32,000 bases of DNA from Candidatus Methanophagaceae archaeon (lineage in GTDB: Archaea > Halobacteriota > Syntropharchaeia > Alkanophagales > Methanospirareceae), in contig PQXB01000001.1 in assembly GCA_003194425.1 (NCBI GenBank), positions 730,444 to 762,443 of the forward strand, written 5' to 3'. The position numbers were made by a program, and so were the translations under genes. Numbering within the stretch: the first letter of the stretch is position 1; every line of letters starts with the position of its first letter. Shown here one piece after another: positions 546 through 31,453 of this stretch. A model generated the notes under the pieces. That model was not told the origin of the DNA. It saw only the letters and a list, made by a program, of their open reading frames with translations, and did no database searches.

Positions 546-1847
546 ATGAGTGAAGAAATGTTGAGGTTGTCGCGGCTGTGTTACCAGTGCGGCGAGTGCA
601 CGGCAGCCTGTCCGCTGCGGAGGGTTTCAAGGTTCTCGCCCCGCCGCATTTTGTACGACCTTGCTGCTGCAAATGCAGATGTTTTAAAGACCGACGAGGA
701 CGACGAGAAAGACCTGTGGAACTGTCTGGTCTGCGAGAACTGCTACATAGTTTGTCCGCAGGAAGTTGATTTTCCGGCTCTCGTGCTAAAATTGAGGAGC
801 GAGGAGGGAGGTGCTGCTGCAGGTGCTGCTGCAAGTGCTGCTGTAAGTGCTGCTGCAAGTGCTGTTGCGAGGAAGGAGAGTTTAGCGCACCGCGAGTTCT
901 CGGAAATCGCCAGTTTTATGACCTGCTTTGAGAAGGGCGTGCCGACGGATTTCGGGGTCGGTGGAGAGACGGACGAGGAGAGCGAGTACGGGTACTTCCC
1001 AGGCTGTCTGGATTATTATGACCTGTTCTTTGATCTCGGCGTGAACTACCACGAAATCGGAGACTGCACGGTGCGGCTGCTGAACGCGGTTGGGATAAAG
1101 CCGCGAATTCTGAGTCTGAAGTGCTGCGGGCACGACGCGCTCTTTCAGGGCAACCGCAAAGTCTTTGAGAAACTCGCTGCCTACAACACCCGAAAAATAA
1201 AGGAGTCGGGCATAAAAAAACTCGTTGTGAGCTGTGCCGAGGGTTTCCTGACTTTTAAAAAATATTACGAACTCGCGGCGAGTGGGGGTGCGGAAGGGGC
1301 GGAAGGGGCAGAGGGAGTGGAGGAGGTAGAGAGGGTGAGGGAGGTAGAGAGGGTGGAGGTCTTACACATCTCGGAATTGCTGAGCGAGCGTGGAGAGAAG
1401 CTGAATTTTAAGGCGGGCAAGGAGGGCAGTCGCACCGTAACGGTAGCCTACCACGACCCGTGTGCGTTTAAGCGGTTTGGGTTGTACGAGGCGCCGAGAG
1501 AGGCGTTAAAGAAGGCGGGTGCGGGGGTGAAACTTGTAGAACTGACGCACGCCAAGGAAAACGCGGTCTGTTGCGGCGTTAGCGGAATGATGAACTGCAA
1601 CGACCGGAGCAAAGCACTGCGGGCGTTTAGGCTGGACGAGGCGAGGGCGAAGAAGGTGGACGTGCTGGTGACTACCTGCCCAAAGTGTCTCTCGCATTTT
1701 AGTTGTCTGAAGCGGGAAACCGAGAGGGAGAGGGGGGGCAGGGAGAGGGGGGGGGAGAAGGAGCGAGAGGAGGGGAGAGTGGGCGGTGGCGAGTACGATT
1801 TTGAGGTGCTTGACCTCTCGGTGTTTTTGGGGCGGTTGTTGAAATGA
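546..1847 (+). CDS. HdrD/GlpC/GlcF-like iron-sulfur oxidoreductase (2x[4Fe-4S] ferredoxin domain + two CCG cysteine-rich domains)
   Basis: 433-aa ORF. Motifs: CYQCGECTAACP and CLVCENCYIVCP, then YFPGC...LKCCGHD and YHDPC...AVCCGVSG...TTCPKC. Three low-complexity inserts interrupt it. Confidence 0.75.
   Translation: MSEEMLRLSRLCYQCGECTAACPLRRVSRFSPRRILYDLAAANADVLKTDEDDEKDLWNCLVCENCYIVCPQEVDFPALVLKLRSEEGGAAAGAAASAAVSAAASAVARKESLAHREFSEIASFMTCFEKGVPTDFGVGGETDEESEYGYFPGCLDYYDLFFDLGVNYHEIGDCTVRLLNAVGIKPRILSLKCCGHDALFQGNRKVFEKLAAYNTRKIKESGIKKLVVSCAEGFLTFKKYYELAASGGAEGAEGAEGVEEVERVREVERVEVLHISELLSERGEKLNFKAGKEGSRTVTVAYHDPCAFKRFGLYEAPREALKKAGAGVKLVELTHAKENAVCCGVSGMMNCNDRSKALRAFRLDEARAKKVDVLVTTCPKCLSHFSCLKRETERERGGRERGGEKEREEGRVGGGEYDFEVLDLSVFLGRLLK
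810..869. repeat. 5 x 12-nt in-frame tandem repeat (ggtgctgctgca family) encoding GAAAGAAASAAVSAAASAVA in the HdrD-like protein
   Basis: Units at 810, 822, 834, 846 and 858, read directly. They lie between the ferredoxin and CCG domains. Confidence 0.9.
1290..1358. repeat. 3 x 9-nt (gcggaaggg; AEG) followed by 2 x 18-nt (gaggtagagagggtgagg; EVERVR/EVERVE) in-frame repeats
   Basis: Codon-aligned units at 1290/1299/1308 and at 1323/1341. Confidence 0.85.
1728..1757. repeat. 2 x 15-nt in-frame repeat (gagagggggggcagg / gagaggggggggggag; ERGGR/ERGGE) inside a G/E/R-rich C-terminal insert
   Basis: Codon-aligned copies at 1728 and 1743, within the purine tract of about 1717-1790. Confidence 0.75.
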
Positions 1848-1851
1848 AAAA

Positions 1852-2889
1852 TCACACTCTTAAACAAAAAACCTCAGTTTCGTCCGAAGGCGAGACAAGA
1901 ATTGACCTCCTCTCTTTCTCGCTCCTGTACTCCACCAAAACCCCTTTCCCCTCAGCACCAGCCTCTGCACCCGCGTCCGAATACCTCGCAGTCAGCCGTG
2001 CTGCGAGTTCAACCGCTTCCTCCTCTTCCGACCCGACCAAAAGCGTCGTCGGACTCCCGCAACCCGGAACCTCAAACACAAAATCCCCCGCACTCCTCAA
2101 CCCCGCCAAAACCTTGTTTTCCTCTTCGTTCCGTCCCACGATTATTTTTGACGAGCCAAACCTAAAATGCCTCCCCACCCTCAGCAGCAAAATGTCCCGC
2201 CTCGTCACTTTCCCTCCCCCTTTCCCGTTCTCCCTCTCCCTGTGCTCGAACAAATCCCGAGCCTTCGCTGCGAACTCCTTGTAGGTGAGGAGGCAGCCTC
2301 CTGCGGGAGTCGGGTACTCGTCCCGCCGCAGACCGAACCGCTTCGCAAGTGCAATTTGCGGCTTCCTGCTCTTTCCTTTTATTCCGAGCAGCCCGCTCCT
2401 CTTCACCCACCCCTCGCGCTCTGGAATCGTAGTGGGCAACAGCCTCGCAGAGAGCGGTCTTAAGACCTGCCCTTCCAAGCCTGCCTCCTTCTCCTCAAGC
2501 TCCAACGCTTTCCTGTGCTGACTCATCGGACGCTCGCCGAGAACGTCGCCAGTAAAGACGAAATCCGCACCCACTTCTTCCGACTCCGCCACCCGCTTCG
2601 CCTCTCGCAGCATAAAAATCCGACAGTCAACGCAGGGGTTCAGCCCCGAGCCGTAGCCGTATTTTGGGCTTCTCACGACCTCCAAATATTCTTCGCCCGC
2701 CTCTACCCGAACGAGCGGAATTCCAAGCCTCTCTGCCACCGCACCTGCGTAGTCCTGCTTCTCCTCCGCCGCAGGGGTGAAAGGCAGAATAAAATTCACT
2801 GCCACCACCTCCACGCCCTGCTCCAAAACGAGCCTGGTCGCCAGAATCGAGTCCAAGCCGCCAGACAACAGTCCTAACGCTTTTTTCAT
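1852..2889 (-). CDS. PP-loop ATP pyrophosphatase family protein (ThiI/MnmA-like tRNA sulfurtransferase superfamily, no THUMP domain)
   Basis: 345-aa ORF with N-terminal PP-loop MKKALGLLSGGLDSILATRL and a downstream CVDCR motif. It starts 7 nt after the hemA stop on the same strand. Confidence 0.65.
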   Translation of the reverse strand: MKKALGLLSGGLDSILATRLVLEQGVEVVAVNFILPFTPAAEEKQDYAGAVAERLGIPLVRVEAGEEYLEVVRSPKYGYGSGLNPCVDCRIFMLREAKRVAESEEVGADFVFTGDVLGERPMSQHRKALELEEKEAGLEGQVLRPLSARLLPTTIPEREGWVKRSGLLGIKGKSRKPQIALAKRFGLRRDEYPTPAGGCLLTYKEFAAKARDLFEHRERENGKGGGKVTRRDILLLRVGRHFRFGSSKIIVGRNEEENKVLAGLRSAGDFVFEVPGCGSPTTLLVGSEEEEAVELAARLTARYSDAGAEAGAEGKGVLVEYRSEKERRSILVSPSDETEVFCLRV

Positions 2890-2893
2890 TCAA

Positions 2894-2927
2894 ATTTCAA
2901 AGCCTTCCCAATTTCAAAGCCTTCCCA
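2894..2927. repeat. 2 x 17-nt perfect tandem duplication (atttcaaagccttccca) spanning the hemA stop codon
   Basis: Copies at 2894-2910 and 2911-2927 are identical. The unit length is not a multiple of 3. Confidence 0.9.
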
Positions 2928-4213
2928 AACTCGTCCAACAGAAACTCTACAAAATCACCGTTGCAATTGCTCTCCTCATTCTCATTTCCCCTACCTTTTT
3001 CCCTGCCTTCCCTTTCTTCCCTCTCAACGTACTTCCGCAGCACCAGGGTCGGCGTGTGAAGCGTCTTTGACAAAACAGCGTTCGAGAAAGCCTCTAACAC
3101 CGCGCTCGGGTCTCGCCCTTTTTTGAGAAACTCAATCGCCTTCTTCTTCTCCACCGCCTTTACACGAGAGCCGTGTTCGTAAAGCATCGCGATGACCCGC
3201 TCGACCTCTCTGCGACTCAGAATCTTTTTAAAGACCGCGATCTCCTCCTCAATTATCCTCTCAACTTTGTCAACCTCCGAGAGTCGCCGCTTCAGGTTCT
3301 CGTCGCTTATCTCGTACAAACTGTCCAAATCATACAAATCCACCCCCTCAATCTCGCCGACCCGCTCCTCTACATCTTTCGGGTTCGCGATGTCAATAAT
3401 TAGAAGGTTGTTCTCGTTCCTGCGGTGCTGCATTACGCGCTGCATTGACTCGTAGTCCAGAATAAAATGCGGTGCCGAGGTGGTGGTTATCGCGACATCG
3501 CAGACCGAGAGGCACTTCTCTTTTTCGCAGAGCCTCGCCGCCTTCCCGCCGACCTCCTCTGCGAGCCACTTCGCTCGCTTCTGTGTCCTGTTGGCGACGA
3601 ACATTGCTTTCAAGTTATTCTTCTTCTCCGAAATCGCCCGTGCCACCAGCGTCCCCATTTCGCCTGCTCCGATTACGAGAATGCTTTTTCCTACCAGTCC
3701 GCGAGTAACATATTCTGCAAGTTCGACAGCAGCCGAGCCGATTGAGACCGAGCCCTCGTTTATTTTCGTCTCGCTTCTCGCCCGCTTCGCTACTTTTATC
3801 GCCCGGTCGAACGCCATTTCAAGAAGACCGTCCAGCGTCCCTTTCCTCCTGCCCTCCAAGTAGCACCGTTTAATCTGTCCCAGAATCTGGTCTTCGCCGA
3901 CGATCATTGCCTCAAGCCCGCAGGCGACGCGCATAAGATGCTCGACCGCGTCTCTGCCCACGAAAATCCCGCACTTCTCCATTTTTCCAATTTTCAGCCT
4001 GTCCGCAACCTCCTCCAAGACCTCTCGCGGCTTCTCGGAACTGACGTACGCCTCCACGCGGTTACAAGTCCTCACGACCGCGTAACCGCAGACGCGTGGG
4101 TCTTCTCCAAATATCTCCGCCCCCGTTTCGGGGTTCAACCTCTCTCCAATCTCCTCAAGCTCCTCGACGCTACACTTTTTATGCGAAAACCACAACGAGC
4201 CGATTTTATTCAT
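2897..4213 (-). CDS. hemA: glutamyl-tRNA reductase
   Basis: 438-aa ORF with the catalytic-Cys motif RTCNRVEAY, NADPH-binding VIGAGEMG, and HemA length and order. The start overlaps the sirC stop by 8 nt. It has a low-complexity C-terminal insert (EREEREGREKGRGNENEESNCNG). Confidence 0.9.
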   Translation of the reverse strand: MNKIGSLWFSHKKCSVEELEEIGERLNPETGAEIFGEDPRVCGYAVVRTCNRVEAYVSSEKPREVLEEVADRLKIGKMEKCGIFVGRDAVEHLMRVACGLEAMIVGEDQILGQIKRCYLEGRRKGTLDGLLEMAFDRAIKVAKRARSETKINEGSVSIGSAAVELAEYVTRGLVGKSILVIGAGEMGTLVARAISEKKNNLKAMFVANRTQKRAKWLAEEVGGKAARLCEKEKCLSVCDVAITTTSAPHFILDYESMQRVMQHRRNENNLLIIDIANPKDVEERVGEIEGVDLYDLDSLYEISDENLKRRLSEVDKVERIIEEEIAVFKKILSRREVERVIAMLYEHGSRVKAVEKKKAIEFLKKGRDPSAVLEAFSNAVLSKTLHTPTLVLRKYVEREEREGREKGRGNENEESNCNGDFVEFLLDEFGKALKLGRL

Positions 4214-5033
4214 TTTTCTCCTCCCACCTTCCTACAATTCCAAGAATCTTCCGCTCAACAGCCTCAAAATCAAAAGGCTCTGCGTCGGTGTCAAGAGCAG
4301 CCCAGCACTCAGGCTCGCTCAAAACCCTGTTCAAAATCGCCTGCCTCTTTTTCTCATCTTTTACCGTCTCTTTTAAATGCTGCCTGAGGTGGGACTGAAC
4401 CAAAAGCATTTTCTCCTCTCTCTCTTTCTCCTCTCTCTCGCTCTCGCTCTCGCCGTCGCTCTCGCCGTCGCTCTCGCCGTCGCTCTCGCCCGCGAGCACG
4501 AGCGACGAAATCTTCTCCTTTAGGTGTCTCGCCATTGCAGGACTTTTACCGCCCGTGGAGACCGAGATTAAAAATCCACCCCTGCCCTTCTTCACGACTG
4601 CGGACATAAACGCGTCGCCCTGCTGCTTGTAATTCACGAGCACGCCGAATTTCGACGCTTTTTTAACCTCCTTAAACAAGTGCTCGTTCAGAGCCTCGTC
4701 GTCAGTGCAAATAATCACTAAAAATGCCCCTCTTACAAGCCCGCCCAGCCCTCCCAAATTCAGATTCCGACACGAGTCCCACAAGTTACAGCGAAAACAC
4801 CGAACCTCGCTCTTCTCCTTCTTACACTTCTCCTTCTTACACTTCTCCTTCTTACACCGTTCTTTTATCCAAGCCGTAAAATCAAGGCTGTAAACCTCTA
4901 CATTCAGTTTCCCCCTCTCCGTCTCAGCGTCAGCAGCAGTCTCAAAAATCTGGCGGATTTTCCTCTCCGCAACCTCACCACCGCCGAACACGACTACTTT
5001 TTTGCCTGTAAGATCAATGTAGAGCGGGAGCAT
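4206..5033 (-). CDS. sirC: precorrin-2 dehydrogenase / sirohydrochlorin ferrochelatase (siroheme synthase N-terminal-domain type)
   Basis: 275-aa ORF with Rossmann motif LTGKKVVVFGGGEVAERKI and a later FLVIICTDDEALN. First gene of a minus-strand operon with hemA. Carries two repeat inserts. Confidence 0.7.
   Translation of the reverse strand: MLPLYIDLTGKKVVVFGGGEVAERKIRQIFETAADAETERGKLNVEVYSLDFTAWIKERCKKEKCKKEKCKKEKSEVRCFRCNLWDSCRNLNLGGLGGLVRGAFLVIICTDDEALNEHLFKEVKKASKFGVLVNYKQQGDAFMSAVVKKGRGGFLISVSTGGKSPAMARHLKEKISSLVLAGESDGESDGESDGESESEREEKEREEKMLLVQSHLRQHLKETVKDEKKRQAILNRVLSEPECWAALDTDAEPFDFEAVERKILGIVGRWEEKNE
4447..4490. repeat. about 3.7 x 12-nt in-frame repeat (ctctcgccgtcg on + strand) encoding (GESD)n in SirC
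   Basis: Perfect units at 4447, 4459 and 4471, plus a partial unit at 4483-4490. Confidence 0.9.
4812..4856. repeat. 3 x 15-nt perfect in-frame repeat (cttctccttcttaca on + strand) encoding (CKKEK)3 in SirC
   Basis: Units at 4812, 4827 and 4842 are identical. Codon 60 of sirC starts at 4856. Confidence 0.9.
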
Positions 5034-5075: not shown

Positions 5076-5618
5076 TTTTTTCCTGCTCTGTTGAATAATT
5101 CAATGAGGTGATAACTATTTGGGCTTCCCACCTAAATACGCTAGCTTCTTATTTCCTCTTCTCCTCCTGCATTATGCATTCATTTTCATATCAATATCCT
5201 CTCGGTTGGCTGGTTTTATAGCCTTGAAATGTGTTCTTATTTATCCAATCAACTCGCTCAAAATTTAAATTCGGGAGTGAGGAAGGTTTAAACTTTTTAT
5301 AGAGCGAGAACGAGTCGAAAAAGGGCGAGGGCGGCGGAAAATGAGAGGGCAGAAAAGAAGGGAGGAGGGAAAAAGGCGGAGGAAAAATGAGCGAAGAAGG
5401 AAAGGTAAAGGCAAAAGTAAAAGAAAAATAACAGTTTATATTCCAAAAGAGCCAAAGAGGATTGATGAAAGGCGGAGAGGTAAAAAGAGGGAAGAGGAAG
5501 GGAAAGAGGAAGGAGGAAAGGAGGGGGGAGAAGAGAAAGACAATTTCCGTTCCGGTTGATGTTTTTTCAGAGGAAGAGGCGGTGTGATTGCGAGAAAAAT
5601 GAAGAACAAAGAATAAAA

Positions 5619-6809
5619 ATGAGCAAGAGCCGACGGAGACTCGCGGTCGCAGGGACGATTCTGTGTGGCGATGATTTTGAGGTGAGGGAAGGGTGCGTGG
5701 TTGTTGAGGGGGGGAAAATAAAGGAGGTTTGTGAAAGTGGTGAAAGTGGCGAGGGGCGGGCGGAAAGAGAGGGAGAAGTAGAGGGAGAAGTAGTAGCAAA
5801 AGGCATCGTAATTCCCGCGTTCGTCAACGCACACACGCACATCGGCGACTCAGTGGCAAAAGAGCCGGATTTTTTGCCTTTAGAAGCGTTGGTTGGTCCT
5901 GGGGGGCTTAAGCACAAAATATTGGCGAAAACTTCTTACGAGACGCTTGTCGCTGCGATGAAAGAGACCGTTGAGGATATTTTTGCTACGGGGACGCAGT
6001 TGTTTGCGGACTTCCGAGAAGGCGGTCTCGCGGGCGTTAAGGCTCTTAAAGACGCTCTTGCTGGCGGGCGGCTGCGTGTGAAAATATTTGGCAGACCTGC
6101 TGGAGAGGGAAAAGAGAGTGGAGAGGGAAAAGAGAGTGGTGAGGGAAAAGAGAGAGAAGAAGACCTAAACAGGCTTCTTGAGGCAGTGGACGGAGTGGGC
6201 GTGAGCAGCGTCGCAGACTGTCCGCTGGGGGAGTTGGAACTTTTGGCGGAGGCTGCGAGAGAGAGAGGAAAAATGTTCGCACTTCACGCCGGCGAGCGGA
6301 ACGCTGCGGACATAAAAGGAGCGTTAGAACTCGAGCCCGACTTCCTCGTGCACCTCACGAAAGCCGAACCCCAGGACTTCAGGAGAATGCAGGACAGGGG
6401 CGTGGCTGCCGTCGTCTGCGTTAGGTCGAACTTGGTGACAGAGGCAGGACTGCCGCCCCTACCGCAAATGCTTGAAGCAGGCTTGACCGTTGGTCTCGGC
6501 ACCGACAATGTAATGCTCAACTCGCCTAATCTCTTCTCTGAGATGGAGTTCGTCTCGAAGATTTTTCGGCTCGACGCACGGGAAGTGCTGAAAATGAGCA
6601 CGCTTGGGTCTGCAAAGGTTTTGGGCGAGGAGAAGTTCGTTGGCTCGATTGAGGCGGGGAAGAGGGCGAATTTAGTGGTGGTTCGAGACGACACACCAAA
6701 TATGCGGGGCGTGCGGGTGCGGGACGCGGTAAAAGGAGTAGTGCGAAGGGCGACACGAAACGACATTGCGGCGGTGATTTACGAAGGCGAAGTTGTTAGC
6801 AAGATTTAG
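5619..6809 (+). CDS. amidohydrolase-superfamily protein (chlorohydrolase / nucleobase-deaminase-like subgroup)
   Basis: The track ORF is 5556..6809. I prefer the ATG at 5619 (MSKSRRRLAVAGTIL) because the 21 upstream codons lie in GA-rich low complexity. Contains the metal-binding HxH motif PAFVNAHTHIGDS, then FALHAGE and GLGTDN. Confidence 0.75.
   Translation: MSKSRRRLAVAGTILCGDDFEVREGCVVVEGGKIKEVCESGESGEGRAEREGEVEGEVVAKGIVIPAFVNAHTHIGDSVAKEPDFLPLEALVGPGGLKHKILAKTSYETLVAAMKETVEDIFATGTQLFADFREGGLAGVKALKDALAGGRLRVKIFGRPAGEGKESGEGKESGEGKEREEDLNRLLEAVDGVGVSSVADCPLGELELLAEAARERGKMFALHAGERNAADIKGALELEPDFLVHLTKAEPQDFRRMQDRGVAAVVCVRSNLVTEAGLPPLPQMLEAGLTVGLGTDNVMLNSPNLFSEMEFVSKIFRLDAREVLKMSTLGSAKVLGEEKFVGSIEAGKRANLVVVRDDTPNMRGVRVRDAVKGVVRRATRNDIAAVIYEGEVVSKI
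5769..5792. repeat. 2 x 12-nt in-frame repeat (gagggagaagta; EGEV)
   Basis: Identical copies at 5769 and 5781. An adjacent 2 x 9-nt repeat (gtgaaagtg) lies at 5731-5748. Confidence 0.85.
6102..6155. repeat. 3 x 18-nt in-frame repeat (ggagagggaaaagagagt; GEGKES) in the amidohydrolase
   Basis: Copies at 6102 and 6120 are identical. The third copy at 6138 has 2 changes. Confidence 0.9.
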
Positions 6810-6817
6810 GAGAAAAT

Positions 6818-8737
6818 GTGAAAAACGTTGCAACGCTTGTCTTCGCTTTTCTGCTGCTCTCTTCTTTAACCTCAACTTTTGCTTCTCCTCTCTCGGAAAC
6901 TGGAGAAAATGGAGCTCAAGCAGATTTGCTAATTACCGCGGTCTACCCTGACACCGCCACCAGGGGCGAGCAGGACGAGTTTGTCGCAGTCACCAACCCC
7001 CGCCCCCTCTCAGTAAACATCGAAGGCTGGAGCCTAACAGACAACGAGGGGCGAGTCGTCTTCCCCGCGTTTCAGCTCGCACCTGGCGAGACGATTTTTG
7101 TCTCGAGAAACGGCTCGGCATTCGTGAAGCAAATGAGCAACGCGACAAGTAGAACCCTCTCTCCCGCGTTCGAGTACGCTCAAATGCAGACCCAAGGAAG
7201 AGCGTTTGTGCTGCGAAACAGTGGCGACGAAGTGATTTTGCAGGACGAGAGCGGGCGGGTGGTGGACGCCCTCGTTTACGGCGACTCGGACTACAAAGCT
7301 AAAGAAGGCGGTGGGTGGCGAGGCGAGCCGTTGCGAAAGCCCGTCGAAGGAATGGTCTTCACGCGAAGGGGCGTTCAAGACCACCAAGACACGAACCAGC
7401 ACGAGGACTGGGTTCTGCTCCAACTCGGCGCTTCTTACCACGCACCCCAAAAATTTACCTTTTCCGGCTTCGACAGGGTCACCGCTTTTGTCTCGCCCGA
7501 CTGCAGCTTCTCGGTTCTGCAGCGCGAAATCGAAAACGCCTCCTCCTCGCTCTGCCTTAACCTCTACCAGTTCGAGAATCCCTACCTAACAGAGGCGGTC
7601 TTGGCGGCTTTGGAGAGGGGCGTGAGCGTCTCTCTACTGCTCGAGGGCAGTCCCGCAGGTGGGCTAAAGGACGAAGAGCTGTGCGTTGCCCAGTGGCTAA
7701 AAGAGGCAGGAGGAGAGGTTCGTTTTGCAGACGAGCCGTTCCTAAACCACGCAAAGTACGCAGTCTTTGACAACGAGACGACCGTCGTGATGAGTGAGAA
7801 CTGGAAGAGCACCGGCGTCCCCTGCAACAACACCTTCGGAAACCGCGGCTGGGGCGTCGTGGTAAAAAATGAGGCTGTGGCGAGTTACTTCAAAGCCGTC
7901 TTCTCCGAAGATTTCTACCGCGCTAAATCTACAGCAAGTGGACAGGGGGTAGAAGGGCAGGGGGTAGAAGAAGTGACGGAAGTAGCGGCGGTTTGTGAGG
8001 CGATGAAAACGAACAAGGCGGTGGCAGAAGGCTCTTACAGTCCTGTTTTCGAACCGCTTACGCTTTCTCAGAACAGCAACACCAACCTCACGGTAATTCC
8101 GGTTTTGGCTCCTGACACCGCTGTCTCGGTCTTGCGCCTGATAAACAGTGCAGAAGAGCGTGTTCTCGTAGAGCAGTTCTCGACAAGGAGATTCTGGGGG
8201 AAGGGAAAAGGAGAAGGAGAGAGCGAGGAAAACCCGTTTGTTACTGCACTGTTAAAAGCCGCGAGGCGGGGCTGCGAGGTCAAGGTTCTGCTGGATTCTA
8301 AGTATTTAGAGGGCACGGACAACAACGACGAGGTCGTCTCGTGGCTGAACGAGGTGGGGTGCGGGTCTGCGTTGAGAGTGGAGGCGAGGTTGGCGGACTT
8401 GGACTCGCTTGGTCTGGTAAAAATACACAGTAAGGGCGTGGTCGTGGACGGCGAGAAAGTACTCGTCTCCTCGTTGAACTGGAACGCGAACTCAATTTAC
8501 AACCGCGAAGCAGGCGTAATAATTGAGAACGAGGAGGTTGCGTCTTTCTTTGAGAAGGTCTTCTTTCACGACTGGAACGCGTCGGTAGAGAGCAGGGAGG
8601 AGAGAGGAGGAAGAGAGGAGGGAGGAGGAAGAGAGGAGGGAACACGCAGAAAAATAAAAATCGTGTGGCTGGCAGTGACGTTGGTTATTTCTTTCGCTAT
8701 TTTCTGGGCGGTCAAGTGGCATAAAAGTAGTAATTAA
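6818..8737 (+). CDS. exported, C-terminally membrane-anchored lamin-tail-domain (LTD) + double-HKD phospholipase-D-family enzyme (nuclease or phospholipase)
   Basis: 639-aa ORF with a GTG start. Signal peptide MKNVATLVFAFLLLSSLTSTFA/SP. LTD-like LLITAVYPD...EFVAVTNP...IEGWSLTD. HKD motif 1 HAKYAVFDNETTVVMSENW at 7748-7801 and HKD motif 2 HSKGVVVDGEKVLVSSLNW at 8426-8479. C-terminal TM segment IVWLAVTLVISFAIFWAV. Confidence 0.8.
   Translation: MKNVATLVFAFLLLSSLTSTFASPLSETGENGAQADLLITAVYPDTATRGEQDEFVAVTNPRPLSVNIEGWSLTDNEGRVVFPAFQLAPGETIFVSRNGSAFVKQMSNATSRTLSPAFEYAQMQTQGRAFVLRNSGDEVILQDESGRVVDALVYGDSDYKAKEGGGWRGEPLRKPVEGMVFTRRGVQDHQDTNQHEDWVLLQLGASYHAPQKFTFSGFDRVTAFVSPDCSFSVLQREIENASSSLCLNLYQFENPYLTEAVLAALERGVSVSLLLEGSPAGGLKDEELCVAQWLKEAGGEVRFADEPFLNHAKYAVFDNETTVVMSENWKSTGVPCNNTFGNRGWGVVVKNEAVASYFKAVFSEDFYRAKSTASGQGVEGQGVEEVTEVAAVCEAMKTNKAVAEGSYSPVFEPLTLSQNSNTNLTVIPVLAPDTAVSVLRLINSAEERVLVEQFSTRRFWGKGKGEGESEENPFVTALLKAARRGCEVKVLLDSKYLEGTDNNDEVVSWLNEVGCGSALRVEARLADLDSLGLVKIHSKGVVVDGEKVLVSSLNWNANSIYNREAGVIIENEEVASFFEKVFFHDWNASVESREERGGREEGGGREEGTRRKIKIVWLAVTLVISFAIFWAVKWHKSSN
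7943..7972. repeat. 2 x 15-nt in-frame repeat (cagggggtagaaggg; QGVEG/QGVEE)
   Basis: Copies at 7943 and 7958, between the two HKD domains. Confidence 0.85.
8606..8641. repeat. 2 x 18-nt perfect in-frame repeat (ggaggaagagaggaggga; GGREEG)
   Basis: Copies at 8606 and 8624, immediately before the C-terminal TM anchor. Confidence 0.9.
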
Positions 8738-23697: not shown

Positions 23698-23810
23698 CTG
23701 AACCTTCCTTCTTTCCCTTCCCCCCTTTCCTTTTTCTTCCCTCCTTTCTCTTCTCCGTTCGCTCACGTCCCTGACAGAGTCGGAAGGAAATAATAAGAAA
23801 AGAAAAATTC

Positions 23811-24280: not shown

Positions 24281-25018
24281 ATGTGCGGAAACGAAGAAGA
24301 AAAAGAAGCAGTAGAAAAAAGGGAAAAAGAAGAAGAGACCGGGGAAGAGGGGTCTGGGGAAGAAGGGTCTTTGGACAATAACCGGGATCTTTTACGCAGG
24401 CTCAGCAAGAGCCAAAAAAGAAAAAGACTAACCGCAGCAGTTAAGAAACAGCATTTAACGGCGCAATCCGAGATTGAGAAGTTGTCTGCGGCGCTTTCTT
24501 TGCCTGACGAAACGAAAGAGTGCAGCAAGGACCTGTACTGTGAGGCGTGGGAAAATAACCTGATTCACGGTCGCTCGATTGAGAAGATTCTGGCTGCCTC
24601 GCTGTACTTAGCCTGCCGTAAATCCCACGTGCCGAGAACGCTTAACGAGGTAGAAACCGCAACGAAAGTGAGGAAGAAAGACATTGCAAAGACTTGCAAG
24701 GTCTTGGCGAGCAGGCTGAAAATGCAGCTCGCTCTCACCTCGGGCTTGGACTACGTGGACAGGTTTTGCGACAAACTGGGTCTGAGGGGAGAAGTAGAAG
24801 AACGGGCGAGAGAAATAATAAAAAAGGCAGAAGAGAAGAACATTACGAGCGGTAGAGGTCCAACCGGCGTTGCAGCGTCCGCGATTTACATTGCCTCGGT
24901 GCAGTGCGGCAACCGGCGAACGCAGAAAAATATTGCCGAGGCGACGGGCGTTACTGAAGTGACTCTGCGGGTGCGGTACAAAGAGTTGTCGCGGGAACTG
25001 GGAATAAAAGTAGAGTAG
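24281..25018 (+). CDS. TFB (TFIIB) homologue consisting of the two-cyclin-fold core only; no Zn-ribbon, B-reader or B-linker
   Basis: 245-aa ORF. LIHGRSIEKILAASLYLACRKSHVPRTLNEV (cyclin 1), ITSGRGPTGVAASAIYIASV...RTQKNIAEATGVTEVTLRVRYKEL (cyclin 2). The N-terminus is 36 aa of acidic low complexity. An in-frame TAA lies at 24230-24232 inside gar1. Confidence 0.85.
   Translation: MCGNEEEKEAVEKREKEEETGEEGSGEEGSLDNNRDLLRRLSKSQKRKRLTAAVKKQHLTAQSEIEKLSAALSLPDETKECSKDLYCEAWENNLIHGRSIEKILAASLYLACRKSHVPRTLNEVETATKVRKKDIAKTCKVLASRLKMQLALTSGLDYVDRFCDKLGLRGEVEERAREIIKKAEEKNITSGRGPTGVAASAIYIASVQCGNRRTQKNIAEATGVTEVTLRVRYKELSRELGIKVE
24341..24370. repeat. 2 x 15-nt in-frame repeat (ggggaagaggggtct / ggggaagaagggtct; GEEGS)
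   Basis: Copies at 24341 and 24356. Confidence 0.85.
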
Positions 25019-25058
25019 AGAGAGGAGCAACGAGAGGGGTGAAGGGAGGAGGAGAGGA

Positions 25059-25829
25059 GTGAAGGGAGGAAGCGGGGAATTTGAGGTAGTTCCTGCGGTG
25101 GACCTTAGGGGGGGTAAGTGCGTTCAACTGCGGCAGGGAAGAAAAGAAGAAGTGATTTTTTCGTCCGCTGAAAGCCCTGTGGAGATCGCGAGGCACTGGG
25201 TCGAGCAGGGAGCGAGCAGGCTGCACATAATTGATCTTGACGGCGCGTTTCAAGAGACGAAGAACAATTCCGCAGTCGTTAAAAAAATAGCCGAGTCGGT
25301 AGGAGTGAGCGGAGTGAGCGGAGTGAGCGGAGTGAGAGGGCGAGCGAAAATTCAAGTGGGCGGCGGAATTCGGTCTTACGAGCGGGCGGTTGAACTTCTA
25401 GCTCTGCCTGGCGTTGAGCGGATAATTTTTGGAACTGCGGCGTTGAAGTCCCCGCGGCTTGTCGAGCGGGTGGCGAGAGAGTTCGGCTCTGAACGCGTGA
25501 TGGTTGCGTTGGACGTGCGGGGCGGGAAAGTGGCGGTAGACGGCTGGCGGGAGACGACCGGGTTGGACGCGAAGGAAGCCGCGAAGCAGGCAGAGGAGCT
25601 AGGTGCGGGCAGTCTGCTCTTCACGAACATTGATGTCGAGGGCTTGATGCAAGGCGTAGAAACAGAGGTTGTAGCGGAGTTCGTGCGTTCCGCGGGCGTT
25701 CCTGTGGTCGTGGCAGGAGGAGTGAGCAGCGCGGAAGATGTGGAGCGGGTAAGAGAGGCGGGAGCAAGCGGAGTGGTGGTCGGGAGCGCGTTGTACACTG
25801 GCAAACTTTCTTTGGAAAATAAAGTTTGA
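25059..25829 (+). CDS. hisA: ProFAR isomerase (histidine biosynthesis HisA)
   Basis: 256-aa ORF with a GTG start. VVPAVDLRGGKCVQLRQG, HIIDLDGAF, QVGGGIR, DGW, and a C-terminal VVAGGVSS...GVVVGSALY (beta/alpha-barrel phosphate sites). Confidence 0.85.
   Translation: MKGGSGEFEVVPAVDLRGGKCVQLRQGRKEEVIFSSAESPVEIARHWVEQGASRLHIIDLDGAFQETKNNSAVVKKIAESVGVSGVSGVSGVRGRAKIQVGGGIRSYERAVELLALPGVERIIFGTAALKSPRLVERVAREFGSERVMVALDVRGGKVAVDGWRETTGLDAKEAAKQAEELGAGSLLFTNIDVEGLMQGVETEVVAEFVRSAGVPVVVAGGVSSAEDVERVREAGASGVVVGSALYTGKLSLENKV
25302..25337. repeat. 4 x 9-nt in-frame repeat (ggagtgagc; GVS)
   Basis: Units at 25302, 25311 and 25320 are identical; the unit at 25329 is ggagtgaga. Confidence 0.9.
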
Positions 25830-25854: not shown

Positions 25855-25927
25855 CGCCGCCGACAGGACTCGAACCTGTGACAAGCCGGTTAACAGCCGG
25901 GCACTCTACCAACTGAGTTACGGCGGC
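25855..25927 (-). tRNA. tRNA-Asn (anticodon GUU)
   Basis: Minus strand GCCGCCGTAACTCAGTTGGTAGAGTGCCCGGCTGTTAACCGGCTTGTCACAGGTTCGAGTCCTGTCGGCGGCG. Perfect 7-bp acceptor, D stem ACTC/GAGT, anticodon loop CTGTTAA on a CCGG/CCGG stem with a C27-C43 mismatch, and T arm ACAGG-TTCGAGT-CCTGT. Confidence 0.85.
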
Positions 25928-27557: not shown

Positions 27558-29548
27558 TTTCGTTTCACCCTCGACCTCCCAGGCGGCAGAAGACTCAGCA
27601 CCTTCTCCTGTGCTACTTTAACCTCTGCACGCTCGGCAAAGAACCTCACAATCTCCATTGAGAGCTCGTTCTTCTCCAAATCGCCACTACCCGAACCAGG
27701 CTCGAGCTCTACAAACTTCTCTAACTTCTCCCGCTGTGAGTCTGTGGAAGGACACGCGACTAACCTACCACTGACTTTCTCTTTCTCCTTTTCAAGCCCT
27801 ACACACAGCCCTAACGCCGCTTTAAAATACCGCCTCTTACCTCGCACCACGAAACTGCCTTTCTTAATGTACTCGCCAGACGGCGGTGTTTTGCTCACCT
27901 GCTCGCCGCTGACGCAGTAGCACTCGCCTTCGTAGAACCCGTATTTCCAGAGATTTGAGTAGGAGGCTGCGAACTGTGCTGCCTCCCGAAGTCCCTCCTC
28001 CGAGATTTCTTTCCCGCCTGTCTTCACTACTGCTACGGGCGCACCCTCCGCCTGCGTGTGAAAAAAAAGGTCGTTGGGCTGCAGGTGCTTCTTCACAAGA
28101 ATCTCGTTCGTCGTTGCGTCCTTCCCTGCTAGCACGAGAAAGCCGTCTGAGGTCTCAAACCACCTGAACTTCTCGTACCACTCTTCTTTTCTCCTCACCT
28201 CCTTCTTCCTCGGCACCCACTCCGCTCCCTCCTCTCCCTTTTCTGCCCTTGTCCTTTCTGCCCTTGTCCTCGCCTGCTCCTTCTCCTTCGCCTTCTCTGT
28301 CTCCGCCTTTAACCGCTTCTTCATCTCTGCTAACGCCCGCTGCACGCCCGCTCTCTTTTTCCTAAACACCTTCGCCTTCTCGTAGTACGCACTTGCGTTC
28401 TTGTGCAGCGAAACCGAAGTGTCAATTTCAAGCTGAAGAGAAGTGTTTGGCAGCGTTAACTTGACTGTTTTTCTCTTTTTGTTTTTTCCAATCTCCCGCA
28501 GAATATTTTCAATCTCGTTGTAGCGTGCGTAAATCAACTCCCCCTTTTTCACGCTCTCCTCTTCTTTTACCTTGAATTTCCGAAGTGCAGCCTCCTGCTC
28601 CTTCAAAATCCGCGAATGCTTACCGACCGCCTCTTCCCTCGCTCCTTTCGCCTTCTCTTCCTGCTCTTTCGCAATTTGTGTCGTAAAGAACTCGTCGGCA
28701 GCGTCGTTAAAAGAACCGAAAAACACTTTCTCTTTGTCCTTGTAGACGCTCAACTCAAAAGGAAGAAAGTCTAATTTCAGTTTTTCTTCTCCCCTTTTTT
28801 CTACCACAGTGTGTGGTGCTTTAAGCTTGGATTTCCCGCTTGTCAGGACTGGCTCAAACAAGCCAGACAGAGCCGCACGAACAGCGGTTATTTCGCTCTC
28901 TGCGAGCTCTCCAGCATAATTTCCTTTCTCAACACCTGCTCTTCTGCAGACCTCTTCCGCGTACAACCCGCCCAGGCTCAACTCTGACGCGAGAACCTTG
29001 ACCACTTCCTTCTTCCCGTTTTTAGCCTCTTTAAAGAGTTCCGCTAACTCAAATTCGCTCATTTCCAAAGGGTTCGCTCTCGACGGCGGTCGTTCATATT
29101 TTTCGCCTATTTTTATCTTCCGCGTCGAAAAGGTCTTTCTCCGCAACGGCAGCACGATTTTCTCGTCCTCATCGACGACCACGAGGTTTCCCCGCGGAAG
29201 CAACTCCGCGACCAACTTGAGTTTTTTGTCCCAGCGCTCAACTGAAATTTCTACAATCCGGTCGAAGTCGAGTTGTCGTATTTTTGAGATTCTGCCGCCG
29301 CCGAGATGTTTTCTGAGGAACATTGCGAAGCCAGAAGGCATTCTCGGCGAGGGACGCTTGTATTTGGTGAGGTGAATTCTCCGCCCTGCCTCGACGATTA
29401 GGTCAAGCGAGCCTCTCTCTTTGTGGTGCAGTCTCAGCCGAATTTCGTCCCTGCCAGGCTGGTAGGCTTTAACGAGCCTCGCCCCTAAGAGGTCTTGCAG
29501 TTCTGCAACTACGACTGCGACGTCCACGTTGCTCATCGTTTCTTTCAT
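27554..29548 (-). CDS. NFACT-family protein (archaeal Rqc2/NEMF/RqcH homologue; FbpA-N + coiled coil + NFACT-R/DUF814)
   Basis: 664-aa ORF. N-terminus MSNVDVAVVVAELQDLLGARLVKAYQPGRDEIRLRLH, a central K/E-rich coiled coil, and the C-terminal FHTQAEGAPVAVVK...AAQFAASYSNLWK. Confidence 0.8.
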   Translation of the reverse strand: MKETMSNVDVAVVVAELQDLLGARLVKAYQPGRDEIRLRLHHKERGSLDLIVEAGRRIHLTKYKRPSPRMPSGFAMFLRKHLGGGRISKIRQLDFDRIVEISVERWDKKLKLVAELLPRGNLVVVDEDEKIVLPLRRKTFSTRKIKIGEKYERPPSRANPLEMSEFELAELFKEAKNGKKEVVKVLASELSLGGLYAEEVCRRAGVEKGNYAGELAESEITAVRAALSGLFEPVLTSGKSKLKAPHTVVEKRGEEKLKLDFLPFELSVYKDKEKVFFGSFNDAADEFFTTQIAKEQEEKAKGAREEAVGKHSRILKEQEAALRKFKVKEEESVKKGELIYARYNEIENILREIGKNKKRKTVKLTLPNTSLQLEIDTSVSLHKNASAYYEKAKVFRKKRAGVQRALAEMKKRLKAETEKAKEKEQARTRAERTRAEKGEEGAEWVPRKKEVRRKEEWYEKFRWFETSDGFLVLAGKDATTNEILVKKHLQPNDLFFHTQAEGAPVAVVKTGGKEISEEGLREAAQFAASYSNLWKYGFYEGECYCVSGEQVSKTPPSGEYIKKGSFVVRGKRRYFKAALGLCVGLEKEKEKVSGRLVACPSTDSQREKLEKFVELEPGSGSGDLEKNELSMEIVRFFAERAEVKVAQEKVLSLLPPGRSRVKRK
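28241..28270. repeat. 2 x 15-nt perfect in-frame repeat (ttctgcccttgtcct on + strand; RTRAE)
   Basis: Copies at 28241 and 28256. Confidence 0.9.
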
Positions 29549-29595
29549 AAAACCTTCTCAAACCCTTTCTCAAACCTTTTCTCAAACCCTTTCTC
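29549..29595. repeat. 4 x about 12-nt tandem repeat (aaaccctttctc family) filling the space between the putative rqcH-like TATA and its ATG
   Basis: Units at 29549-29559 (11 nt), 29560-29571, 29572-29583 and 29584-29595. Non-coding. Confidence 0.85.
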
Positions 29596-29600
29596 AAAAC

Positions 29601-29611
29601 CTTTTTTAAAC
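29601..29611 (-). promoter_or_regulatory. TATA-box candidate for the NFACT gene
   Basis: The minus strand reads gtttaaaaaag, 53 nt upstream of ATG 29548. An oligo-T run on the minus strand at about 29640-29662 could terminate the upstream ABC operon. Confidence 0.35.
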
Positions 29612-30392: not shown

Positions 30393-30395
30393 TTT

Positions 30396-31415
30396 CTACT
30401 CTTCCCCTCCTCCGTCTCTGTCTGTCTCTGTCTGACGCACAATTTCCAAATAAACTTCTTCCAACGACTTCTCAACCCTCTTCAACTCCTCCACCTTCAC
30501 CCCCGCTCTCACCAGCCGCTCCAAGAGCCTTGAAGGGCTCTCTGCTCCCTGTCCTTGTCCTTGTTTCTGTTTCAGAGCCACACGCAGCCTCACACCCTTT
30601 CCCCTTCCTTCTCGCTCTAGCTCGCAGTCAGCCACGAAGTCCTGCTCCAGCGAGCCAACGACTTGCAACGCTCTTGCAGCCTCCTCGCTGTCTGCGAACG
30701 CGACTTCAACCACCGGTCTGCTGAACCTTCTCCGAAGGTTTTCGACCGAGTCGTAGGCTCTCAGCTCGCCGTTCTGCAGGATCGCGATTCTCGTGCAAAT
30801 TCGCTGCACCTCGTCCAAGTCGTGTGAGTTCAGGAAGACCGTCCTCTTCTCCTCCTTCGAGAGTTTGAGAATGAGGTCGCGGACCATTCGCTGCGCCTCA
30901 GGGTCGAGACCGGTGGCGGGCTCGTCGAGGAAGAGAATTTCGGGCTCGTGAATCAGCGCTCTCGCGAGTGCGAGTTTGCGTTTCATTCCTGTTGAGAATT
31001 TCCCGACCTTCTCGTTCCTTCTCTCCGAGAGCCCTACAAACTCCAGCAACTCTTCTACCCTCTCTCCTTCTAACCGCCGCCCTGCTCTGCTCCTACTCCT
31101 TGCAGCGACGCCGTAAAGCCGTGCGTAGTAGTCCAAGTTCTCGTGAGCAGTCAGTCGCTCGTACAGCCCGTCGCTCTCCAGAACGACCCCCACTCGTTGC
31201 CGCAGTTCCTCGTCCTCACCCAAATTCCTGCCCTCTACCAAAGCCGTCCCTGAGGTCGGCTTCAAGAGACCGAGAATAATTCGGAGTGTCGTGGTCTTGC
31301 CCGCTCCGTTTGGACCCAAATAGCCGAAGACCTCTCCCTCTTTCACCTCAAAGCTGACGCCGTTGAGCACCGTTCTCCCGTTGAACTTTTTCGTTAGATC
31401 CTGTATTTTTATCAT
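30396..31415 (-). CDS. ABC transporter ATP-binding protein
   Basis: 339-aa ORF. Walker A GPNGAGKTT, signature FSTGMKRKLALARAL, Walker B ILFLDEPATGLD, and an H-loop at NSHD. The C-terminal extension has low complexity (KQKQGQGQG; ETDRDGGGEE). Confidence 0.9.
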   Translation of the reverse strand: MIKIQDLTKKFNGRTVLNGVSFEVKEGEVFGYLGPNGAGKTTTLRIILGLLKPTSGTALVEGRNLGEDEELRQRVGVVLESDGLYERLTAHENLDYYARLYGVAARSRSRAGRRLEGERVEELLEFVGLSERRNEKVGKFSTGMKRKLALARALIHEPEILFLDEPATGLDPEAQRMVRDLILKLSKEEKRTVFLNSHDLDEVQRICTRIAILQNGELRAYDSVENLRRRFSRPVVEVAFADSEEAARALQVVGSLEQDFVADCELEREGRGKGVRLRVALKQKQGQGQGAESPSRLLERLVRAGVKVEELKRVEKSLEEVYLEIVRQTETDRDGGGEE

Positions 31416-31417
31416 TT

Positions 31418-31453
31418 TTTACTCGTGCCTTTACTCGTGCCTTTACTCGTGCC
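31418..31453. repeat. 3 x 12-nt perfect tandem repeat (tttactcgtgcc) that triplicates the last codons plus stop of the FtsX-like gene
   Basis: Units at 31418, 31430 and 31442. The minus strand reads cacgagtaa three times, with in-frame stops at 31443-45, 31431-33 and 31419-21. Confidence 0.9.

Follow-up and report, generated by a model that had tools for sequence, protein, structure and literature searches.

The 32-kb window analysed here (contig PQXB01000001.1 of the Candidatus Methanophagaceae archaeon assembly GCA_003194425.1, positions 730,444 to 762,443) is threaded with short tandem repeats, referred to below as arrays, that run through its protein-coding genes and through the DNA between them. 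The window holds 21 complete genes, one gene that runs off its right end, and three tRNA genes. The proteins encoded are an HdrD-like Fe-S/CCG protein, a ThiI-like protein, HemA, SirC, an amidohydrolase, a secreted PLD-family protein, an Eco57I-like methyltransferase, a TrkA-N/DHH protein, an MptE-like protein, a small multiheme cytochrome, the tRNA-splicing endonuclease EndA, a GATase/GXGXG protein, a SufS-like desulfurase, aEF-2, Gar1, a TFB-like protein (cyclin repeats only), HisA, iPGM, NFACT, and three parts of ABC transporters. These names were first assigned from the sequence in an earlier reading of the window, hereafter the original prediction, and were upheld by Pfam; aEF-2, HisA, the SufS-like protein, and EndA also have structure matches. 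That reading counted 22 complete genes; 21 are complete, and the last one listed (31443-31982) is part of a 377-amino-acid (aa) gene extending past the window end.

By its aEF-2, whose best matches are 83% identical over the full length and 88% identical outside an insert described below, the organism belongs to the anaerobic methanotrophic (ANME) archaea of group ANME-1 (Methanophagales). NCBI records PXF51491.1 and PXF51508.1 (locus tag C4B55) match its HdrD-like and HisA proteins exactly, respectively. Of ten window proteins looked up in a protein collection, eight had no exact counterpart, probably owing to different start calls. The GC content of the window is 53%, and the contig comprises 1,187,124 nucleotides (nt) within a genome of ~1.4 Mb. 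The source is probably the mesophilic ANME-1a genome G37, which was obtained from a 37°C Guaymas Basin enrichment and has a size of 1.40 Mb, 5 scaffolds, and a GC content of 52%; the thermophilic G60 genome of the same study has 46% GC and 38 scaffolds (Krukenberg et al. 2018, PMC5947290). An extrachromosomal origin was considered and rejected, since the genes are core single-copy genes with ANME-1 best matches and the contig accounts for 1.19 Mb of the ~1.4-Mb genome. The window is part of the main chromosome of an ANME-1a archaeon, not of an extrachromosomal element.

Results

Arrays Are Far in Excess of Chance and Keep the Reading Frame

Tandem Repeats Finder (TRF), with a minimum score of 50 and overlapping rows merged, reports 28 arrays in the window, which together occupy 1,493 nt, or 4.7% of it. 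When codons are shuffled within genes, 5.3 +/- 0.5 arrays remain, and these are the unshuffled intergenic ones; local shuffling in blocks of 20 codons leaves 7.5 arrays, and dinucleotide shuffling leaves 0.12. A strict finder of perfect repeats (at least two units and at least 24 nt) returns 20 arrays covering 2.2% of the window. Fifteen to 16 of the 22 genes contain at least one array, so that the earlier figure of at least 13 was conservative. Every array position in the original prediction is indeed occupied by an array, and TRF recovers nearly all of them. Direct alignment confirmed two that TRF missed, one in the PLD-family gene (two 15-nt units with one mismatch) and one in EndA (45- and 39-nt units with one 6-nt gap and 3 mismatches), and the composite structure claimed for the second HdrD-like array, three 9-nt units plus an imperfect pair of 18-nt units, was also found. 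Copy numbers are typically non-integer (2.1, 2.2, 3.1, 3.9, 4.8), reflecting partial repeats that flank the arrays.

The unit length of arrays within genes is almost invariably a multiple of three (3n). This is the case for 20 of the 21 genic arrays found by TRF and for all 17 perfect arrays inside genes; the sole exception (29725-29774, in a membrane protein) is a weak array of period 19 with 78% match and 15% indels. Intergenic and gene-edge periods are mixed (17, 19, 21, 13, 20, 24, and 12 nt). When the window is pooled with its flanks from the same lineage, units are 3n in 29 of 30 genic arrays versus five of ten intergenic or edge arrays (Fisher p = 0.002), and the genic share departs strongly from the expected one third (binomial p = 3e-13). 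The excess of 3n units in genes that the original prediction called for is therefore present. Its stronger statement, that every intragenic unit is 3n, is correct for gene interiors and fails at the extreme 3' ends of genes, where a 10-nt unit is found in the ABC-ATPase gene (30414-30434).

Nearly All Arrays Compared Are Insertions in Loops, Linkers, and Termini

We compared the arrays of aEF-2, EndA, the SufS-like protein, HisA, SirC, and the HdrD-like protein with orthologues or solved structures. In these alignments nearly every array compared is a lineage-specific insertion, as had been proposed, and segments homologous to the arrays at the same positions, which would mark them as ancient linkers, were not found in the orthologues. 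In aEF-2 the array lies within a clean 43-aa insertion that is missing from all six aligned ANME-1/Alkanophagales orthologues and that separates two neighbouring residues (188 and 189) when aligned with the archaeal EF-2 chain of PDB 9ou7. The other aEF-2 relatives listed are 727-732 aa long, barring three calls that are shorter at the N-terminus and one start-codon miscall. We take the insertion site to be that of the G' insertion of EF-G and eukaryotic eEF2, which lies between motifs G4 and G5. An AlphaFold model of aEF-2 calculated from a seven-sequence alignment was too poor to be used (predicted local distance difference test, pLDDT, 41). None of the three EndA arrays has a counterpart in five ANME-1 orthologues or in the EndA structure from Archaeoglobus (PDB 2gjw), all of which show gaps there. 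Moreover, in an AlphaFold2 model of EndA (46-sequence alignment; mean pLDDT 74.7; predicted template modelling score 0.72) pLDDT falls below 50 only at residues 96-110, 185-224, and 375-404, which are arrays 1, 2, and 3 and which form a beta-hairpin loop, an inter-domain linker, and a loop before the last strand, respectively. This agrees with the earlier claim that the inserts lie outside the family motifs.

The remaining comparisons are similar. The (GLGS)n array of the SufS-like protein is an 11-aa gap in PDB 5b7s, and its second array adds ~27 aa between two segments aligned to the same structure, while the (GVS)n array of HisA is a 13-aa gap in solved HisA structures. SirC is 275 aa long here versus ~205-230 aa in its relatives, and both of its arrays are insertions, the GESD/SEREEK array of 23 aa relative to all relatives and the CKKEK array of 12 aa relative to the nearest relative, P0237. 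HdrD-like arrays 1 and 2 are missing from 70%-identical orthologues, the second being a 22-aa gap in orthologues P0122, P0125, and P0138; array 3 sits in a stretch that is variable and of low complexity in the orthologues too. Other ANME-1 HdrD-like orthologues carry independent low-complexity inserts at different positions. The Gar1 array is located in an N-terminal extension ahead of the Pfam Gar1 domain, which begins at residue 43; Gar1 has no match among solved structures, and its status as an insertion therefore derives from the Pfam boundary and from polymorphism between strains. Finally, perfect amino acid tandem repeats (at least 2.5 copies and at least 9 aa) are present in eight of the 22 window proteins versus two of ~490 homologues from outside the lineage, with none in 120 aEF-2, 150 SirC, or 114 EndA homologues. 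The arrays thus sit in loops, linkers, and termini.

Arrays account for 4.2% of the encoded residues. Gly (21%) and Glu (25%) are each enriched ~2.5-fold in them, Trp, Tyr, His, and Met do not occur in them, and 85% of their residues, by composition, are disorder-promoting versus 53% elsewhere. On the coding strand, purines make up 78% of array bases versus a background of 58.5%, with G at 46% and A at 33% (background, 33% and 25%, respectively). Inspection of the intergenic arrays shows that most of them, too, are rich in purines on the strand that is sense for the neighbouring gene. Most host proteins are cytoplasmic enzymes, whereas the PLD-family, cytochrome, and FtsX-like proteins are secreted or located in the membrane; a set of 22 genes is too small to test for enrichment of either class.

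Unit Number Varies Between Sister Strains

Sister strains that are 98-99% identical to the window reveal how labile the arrays are. Two sequences provide most of the comparison: L012, a JGI metagenome contig (Ga0190347_1000127) found by a 24-mer adjoining the aEF-2 insert, which aligns to window positions 21173-32000 with 70 single-nucleotide polymorphisms (SNPs), and L016, a sister metagenome-assembled genome (MAG; GCA_026133975.1), which aligns to positions 1-11123 with 83 SNPs. Their SNP divergence is 0.64% and 0.74%, respectively. The right end of the window is also represented in three more contigs, taken from ENA and Logan assemblies. The compared parts contain 20 arrays scoring at least 50, and for ten of these one or more strains have a copy number other than that of the window (Table 1). 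All indels of at least 9 nt between strains fall in tandem arrays or low-complexity tracts. Apart from these, only two indels exceed a single base; they measure 3 and 6 nt, lie in the methyltransferase gene, and keep its reading frame. The aEF-2 array has the same length in the window and in L012 and differs in the order of its GEA and GET units. Unit numbers thus vary among strains separated by an SNP divergence of 0.6-0.75%, in keeping with the claim that the arrays are young and active.

Larger sets of alleles are available for two of the proteins. In the HdrD-like cluster at 90% identity (11 near-identical sequences), length varies only at array 1 (0, -4, or -8 aa) and array 3 (-5, 0, or +7 aa), array 2 being of constant length within the lineage. 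For EndA, the seven lineage sequences represent seven length alleles: the (GGGR)n array occurs in three lengths (0, -4, and -8 aa relative to the window), the EEEQ array in six, and the 13-15-aa C-terminal unit of array 3 in one, two, or three copies.

The strains also show what becomes of units that are not 3n. At the 3' end of HemA, the two copies of the 17-nt unit are translated in different frames, copy 1 encoding ...GKALKL and the shifted copy 2 encoding GRL followed by a TGA stop; the third copy present in L016 lies past the stop. Likewise, the 10-nt duplication in the ABC-ATPase gene alters the tail of the protein, which reads ...TETDRDGGGEE in the window versus ...TETEEGKSRK in L012. 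Non-3n units are tolerated only at the extreme 3' ends of genes, where frame no longer matters. Together with the 3n units of gene interiors and the mixed units of intergenic DNA, this is the pattern expected of the frame filter that the original prediction had invoked.

The genes that carry the arrays are not decaying. The ratio of nonsynonymous to synonymous polymorphism (pN/pS) is 0.14 and 0.37 relative to the two strains and 0.24 when pooled, and all open reading frames (ORFs) are intact. On these grounds we reject decay of the genes through relaxed selection; purifying selection acts normally on their point substitutions, and these are constrained genes with variable inserts.

Two independent Logan short-read contigs (L014 and L015) end inside the intergenic 24-nt array, at window position ~29557. 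Arrays therefore fragment assemblies of this lineage, and array density in MAGs is probably underestimated.

Table 1. Tandem arrays and tRNA genes of the window (window positions), with the differences seen in sister-strain sequences (L012 to L016)
Feature	Position	Strand	Unit or repeat	Detection or context	Difference in sister strains
HdrD-like array 1	811..868	+	12 nt x4.8, AAAG/AAAS units	TRF	
HdrD-like array 2	1290..1352	+	9 nt x3 + 18 nt x2 (GAE; VEEVER)	TRF + direct alignment	
HdrD-like array 3	1722..1779	+	15 nt (RERGG/EKERE)	TRF	L016 +21 nt
HemA 3'-end non-3n array	2893..2928	-	17 nt x2.1	TRF, perfect-repeat finder	window 2 copies, L016 3
HemA C-terminal low-complexity tract	2985..3022	-	EREEREGREKGRG	TRF	L016 -15 nt, in frame
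SirC array 1	4410..4491	-	GESD x4 + SEREEK	TRF, perfect-repeat finder	
SirC array 2	4812..4857	-	CKKEK, 15 nt x3.1	perfect repeat	
Intergenic purine-rich array	5484..5531		19 nt x2.1	TRF; upstream of amidohydrolase gene	
Amidohydrolase array 1	5768..5793	+	GEVE, 12 nt x2.2	perfect-repeat finder	L016 +12 nt (3 units)
Amidohydrolase array 2	6101..6154	+	GEGKES, 18 nt x3	TRF	L016 +18 nt (4 units)
PLD array 1	7943..7972	+	GQGVE, 15 nt x2	direct alignment	
PLD array 2	8587..8641	+	GGREE, 18 nt x2.5	TRF; directly before C-terminal membrane helix	L016 +18 nt
tRNA-Ile (GAT) gene	12512..12586			longer intergenic gap	
TrkA-N/DHH array	13654..13696	-	GKGEGA-type, 18 nt x2.3	TRF	
Intergenic AT-rich duplication	14265..14305		21 nt x2 (TTTTTAAAACCCTCTTTAAAT)	TRF; divergent promoter region, DHH / MptE-like genes	
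Cytochrome c array	15289..15313	+	LPTK, 12 nt x2.1	TRF, perfect-repeat finder; in P/T-rich linker	
EndA array 1	16062..16113	+	GGGR, 12 nt x4.2	insertion vs orthologues + PDB 2gjw	
EndA array 2	16371..16462	+	EEEQ/EVEQ, 12 nt	inter-domain linker; insertion vs orthologues + PDB 2gjw	
EndA array 3	16916..16999	+	FRKSLIKxNASLQ, 45+39 nt	direct alignment	
GATase/GXGXG array	18415..18450	+	QDACGG, 18 nt x2	perfect repeat	
SufS-like array 1	19945..19987	+	GLGS, 12 nt x3	gap in PDB 5b7s	
SufS-like array 2	20103..20192	+	PEAE..., KAAGE...	between segments aligned to PDB 5b7s	
aEF-2 array	22831..22933	-	GEA/GET, 9/18 nt x ~10	orthologue alignment; within 43-aa G-domain insert	
Intergenic duplication	23535..23560		13 nt x2	perfect-repeat finder; upstream of aEF-2	
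tRNA-Asp (GTC) gene	23625..23698			longer intergenic gap	
Gar1 N-terminal array	23888..23944	+	KQGV, 12 nt x4.8	outside Pfam Gar1 domain	window 5 units, L012 7
TFB-like N-terminal acidic tract	24293..24370	+	acidic tract + GEEGS, 15 nt x2.8	TRF	
Duplication at HisA start	25032..25070	+	20 nt x2	TRF; across ribosome-binding site + GTG start of HisA	
HisA array	25302..25336	+	GVS, 9 nt x3.9	gap in solved HisA structures	three alleles: +0, +9, +18 nt
tRNA-Asn (GTT) gene	25855..25927			longer intergenic gap	
NFACT array	28240..28304	-	TRAEK-type, 15/18 nt	TRF, perfect-repeat finder; coiled-coil region	
Intergenic array	29542..29611		24 nt	TRF; upstream of NFACT	L012 and L013 about +23 nt
ABC-ATPase last-codon non-3n duplication	30414..30434	-	10 nt x2.1	TRF	window 2 copies, L012 1
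Array at ABC-ATPase / FtsX-like gene junction	31418..31453	-	12 nt x3	perfect repeat	window 3 copies; L012, L014, L015 2
FtsX-like array	31935..31978	-	VEKVEEVEEV, 9/18 nt	TRF; internal to 377-aa gene	

Arrays Extend Beyond the Window and Recur in ANME-1

Sequence of the same lineage outside the window contains 0.95 arrays per kb over 9.4 kb upstream and 0.81 per kb over 4.9 kb downstream, and all nine outside arrays in well-supported genes are 3n, one 16-nt array in a doubtful 56-aa ORF being left out. Pooled over 46 kb, the lineage has 0.88 arrays per kb and a coverage of 5.0%. As far as can be seen in this sequence, the effect is not local. By comparison, 150 kb from ten loci of other ANME-1/Alkanophagales contain 28 arrays (0.19 per kb), and several loci contain none. 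The 10-kb flanks of aEF-2 from other ANME-1 served only as controls for repeat density; gene order around aEF-2 is not conserved in ANME-1. Twenty of the 28 control arrays come from two loci, those of Ca. Methanospirare jalkutatii and GCA_053938205.1 (0.45 per kb). In Ca. Methanospirare jalkutatii the genic arrays are 3n and the intergenic arrays are not, and in GCA_053938205.1 all ten arrays are intergenic, which suggests equal mutational input with stricter exclusion from genes. The tendency to form arrays is recurrent in ANME-1, and this lineage is the extreme case. We reject GC content and thermophily as causes: Alkanophagales sequence at 53% GC has 0.05 arrays per kb, and the source matches the mesophilic G37 genome, not the thermophilic G60 genome.

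Other Features of the Window

The three tRNA genes lie in longer intergenic gaps; no array occurs inside any of them, and arrays and strain indels flank these genes and never enter them. The duplication at 25032-25070, whose ribosome-binding region is rich in purines, creates a second, out-of-frame upstream copy of the start context of HisA, and the one at 14265-14305 may supply a second copy of a TATA/BRE-like element. The amidohydrolase probably starts at the ATG at 5619 (MSKSRRRL...), following the gene call in the sister strain, and the TTG start assigned mechanically to the ORF (5556-5618) is likely wrong.

The ThiI-like gene (1852-2889) encodes a ThiI/tRNA-thiolation-like N-terminal domain fused to a C-terminal NFACT-R_2 RNA-binding domain, and a full NFACT protein is also encoded in the window (27554-29548). 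The TFB-like protein (24281-25018) contains two TFIIB cyclin repeats and lacks the N-terminal zinc ribbon and B-reader, having an acidic repeat tract instead; its residues 40-244 are 44% identical to a full-length 317-aa TFB of another ANME-1, and it is probably a truncated TFB paralogue. The largest gene (8753-12103), which encodes a 1116-aa Eco57I/MmeI-like type IIG methyltransferase, is almost free of arrays. It contains no more than short GGGGG and GEGEGG tracts, at which the 3- and 6-nt strain indels occur; recent acquisition of the gene or a lower tolerance for insertions could account for this. In L012, ~600 nt directly downstream of aEF-2 (L012 1-612) are unrelated to the window, where the SufS-like gene follows. 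This segment, a strain-specific insertion or a rearrangement breakpoint at window position ~21173, contains two short minus-strand ORFs resembling a putative toxin-antitoxin pair.

Discussion

How do the arrays compare with known repeat systems? The closest precedent is the Borg, a giant linear extrachromosomal element of Methanoperedens that carries tandem repeats encoding amino acid tandem repeats (Schoelmerich et al. 2023, PLoS Biol, PMC9879509). Borg units are 3n in 100% of genic cases and in 14-38% of intergenic ones; the repeats make up 0.62% of the Borg genomes and no more than 0.01% of those of the Methanoperedens hosts, from which the authors consider such repeats virtually absent, and adenine makes up 48% of the coding strand of Borg repeats (PMC9879509). 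The likeness extends to many particulars. In both systems head-to-tail repeats with locus-unique unit sequences run through genes and intergenic DNA, genic units obey the 3n rule (29/30 here, with 5/10 for intergenic or edge arrays), partial repeats flank the arrays, and the sense strand is biased in base composition. In both, close relatives differ in unit number, indels are restricted to repeats, the arrays are missing from homologues, and the disorder-promoting products are modelled as unstructured excursions at termini or between domains. Even N-terminal repeats in RNA-binding proteins, Pro/Thr (P/T) repeats in multiheme cytochromes, and assemblies that break at repeats are shared.

There are also differences. 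Borg repeats are borne by a giant linear element and are mainly found in extracellular and membrane proteins. The arrays described here lie in the chromosome of an archaeon from a different ANME order, and most of their hosts are cytoplasmic housekeeping proteins (aEF-2, EndA, HisA, SufS-like, SirC, HemA, Gar1). They are shorter and slightly less perfect, yet at short lengths they occur at a much higher density (~0.9 per kb and 5% of bases). The base bias is toward G+A (G 46%, A 33%) rather than A, and Gly and Glu are enriched rather than Pro, Thr, Glu, and Lys. Under the Borg detection threshold (perfect, at least three units, at least 50 nt; PMC9879509), only one of ~30 arrays qualifies, that of Gar1 (23888-23938); the others are 24-47 nt if perfect, or 80-97% near-perfect. 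The original prediction knew of no description of such arrays for archaeal core genes. What sets the present case apart from the published Borg precedent (PMC9879509) is the cellular chromosome and the housekeeping hosts. A literature search limited to open-access papers found no description of tandem repeats as a property of ANME-1.

More generally, tandem duplication mediated by microhomology is reported from all domains of life and has been put forward as a universal way in which tandem repeats arise (bioRxiv 10.64898/2026.02.28.708716), and slippage by the archaeal polymerases PolB and PolD is cited in the Borg study (PMC9879509). The arrays may resemble the products of these processes in that two-copy duplications with short flanking microhomology would grow into multi-copy, reversible, variable arrays; they differ in that the process is described as universal but of low density, whereas here density is ~5-fold above that of pooled ANME-1 relatives and essential genes are hit. 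In a survey of prokaryotic low-complexity regions, these regions were found to grow by proliferation of short repeats, a rapid mode of protein evolution over short times, and housekeeping or essential families typically had zero low-complexity content (Persi et al. 2023, PNAS, PMC10120016). Here, in contrast, housekeeping and essential families are exactly those with arrays.

The units are strictly head-to-tail and have no spacers, and the arrays are not CRISPR arrays (clustered regularly interspaced short palindromic repeats). Plasmodium housekeeping proteins contain low-complexity loop inserts that are Asn/Lys-rich in keeping with an AT-rich genome. The arrays are similarly lineage-specific, hydrophilic, located in loops of conserved enzymes, tolerated, and of a composition that tracks base bias, but they occur in a prokaryote with a GC content of ~53%, follow a purine-loaded sense strand, are rich in Gly and Glu, and retain units that are recognisable in the DNA and polymorphic between strains. 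Bacterial contingency loci have units of 1-8 nt and switch surface or virulence genes on and off by frameshifting. Although these too are hypermutable tandem repeats in or near genes that change by slippage, the units here are 9-45 nt long, frame is kept, and the genes are core metabolic and information-processing ones. We therefore rejected phase variation: interior units are 3n, all alleles have intact ORFs, non-3n units alter the last residues only, and no on/off switching by array length was seen among the alleles compared.

What process generates the arrays? We propose, with good but not full confidence, that this lineage has a high rate of microhomology-mediated duplication and slippage on purine-rich DNA, the products of which are filtered for frame and for placement in loops and termini. 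The first duplication would arise from misalignment at short microhomologies or from replication slippage on GA-rich low-complexity sequence. Repeated slippage would then cause unit number (units of ~9-45 nt) to grow or shrink, and purifying selection would purge arrays that shift the frame or fall in the folded core. GA-rich DNA would offer many opportunities for misalignment and encodes Gly, Glu, Lys, or Arg in any frame, so that the surviving inserts would be hydrophilic, disordered, and tolerated by essential enzymes. Most arrays are probably nearly neutral and simply carried along, not features built for a purpose, and some of them may since have been co-opted. Consistent with this proposal, microhomology of at least 1 nt flanks seven of the 11 two-copy duplications, where a share of 25% would be expected (p = 0.008). 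This interpretation is in essence the slippage or duplication process filtered for frame that the original prediction put forward; selection for charged disordered loops, its alternative, is not needed to account for the evidence, though it may act on some arrays. Several points weigh against our proposal. The microhomology arms are only 1-3 nt and the sample of 11 duplications is small; no cause of the raised rate was identified in the lineage sequence seen; ~46 kb of a ~1.4-Mb genome were sampled; and the small intergenic sample (~2.6 kb in the window) makes the comparison of in-frame density between genes and intergenic DNA imprecise. In addition, arrays are retained in all sampled lineage alleles, often with at least two units, which may mean some selection for retention, and residue types recur in functionally related proteins.

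The last two points would fit arrays that are adaptive, that is, selected as charged, disordered loops or tails that serve solubility, RNA binding, condensates, or interactions, with variable length acting as a tuning knob. The enrichment of Gly and Glu, the preponderance of disorder-promoting residues, and the normal purifying selection on the host genes can be read in the same way, as can the RGG-like GGGR repeat of EndA and the basic KQGV repeat of Gar1, both RNA-handling proteins, and the P/T-rich repeat of the cytochrome, which recalls the repeats described in multiheme cytochromes of Borgs. A functional role is favoured by the authors of the Borg study (PMC9879509). Nevertheless, we consider adaptation of this kind unlikely as the general explanation. 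Non-coding DNA is at least as array-dense as coding DNA (~2.5 per kb in intergenic and edge DNA of the window versus 0.72 per kb in genes), non-3n units included, and non-3n units appear wherever frame ceases to matter. Arrays are found indiscriminately in metabolic enzymes with no obvious need for disorder (HisA, SufS-like, SirC, amidohydrolase), their copy number is wholly unconserved, as the EndA alleles illustrate, and their composition requires no functional selection, since GA-rich DNA yields hydrophilic residues in any frame. The EndA, Gar1, and cytochrome-linker repeats are the cases in which residue type is most suggestive of a functional role.

A dedicated repeat-writing machinery (polymerase, nuclease, or integrase) common to Borgs and this ANME-1a chromosome would explain why the phenotype matches Borg repeats point by point, in phase, partial repeats, sense-strand bias, indels, disorder, and assembly breaks, and why the trait is so sharply lineage-specific among ANME-1. 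We judge it quite improbable. The 46 kb examined contain no candidate gene, the arrays are shorter and less perfect than those of Borgs, with a single one reaching the Borg threshold, and the bias is toward G+A and not A alone. Moreover, ANME-1 and Methanoperedens belong to different orders. Ordinary slippage and microhomology-mediated duplication suffice (bioRxiv 10.64898/2026.02.28.708716). Least credible of all, and in our view effectively refuted, is the notion that the arrays are errors of assembly or binning, or ancient conserved linkers mistaken for recent insertions. Repeats are a known source of assembly error, and two Logan contigs do stop inside an array; however, the same array sites recur, differing by whole units, in at least five independent assemblies (NCBI, JGI, ENA, Logan), most arrays are 24-100 nt and so below sequencing-read length, and neither the orthologues from other lineages nor the solved structures contain them. 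Rapid duplication and slippage under a filter for frame and placement thus remains our preferred explanation.

To our knowledge, no archaeal system other than the Borg is known to be pervaded by in-frame tandem repeats. Here, Borg-like hypervariable in-frame repeats act on a cellular chromosome and reach essential genes, among them those for aEF-2, the tRNA-splicing endonuclease, HisA, and SufS, and strains less than 1% apart carry different alleles. One could speculate, though we hold the idea to be rather doubtful at present, that Borg-style repeat generation is a replication or repair state that certain ANME archaea can enter, and that in this lineage it operates on the chromosome and writes disordered segments into essential proteins. 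If this were true, the repeat mechanism and its fitness effects would become experimentally tractable for the first time, given the 37°C enrichment with metagenomes and metatranscriptomes that is the probable source culture. Should the arrays prove to be genome-wide, they would be a warning for short-read assemblies and orthology pipelines, which would mishandle such genes because contigs break at arrays and protein lengths vary by strain, and they would provide ready-made, highly discriminating variable-number tandem repeat markers for strains in ANME-1 populations. They would also constitute a natural experiment on the tolerance of core enzymes for disordered insertions, and a tractable setting in which to ask what sets the rate of tandem duplication in archaea.

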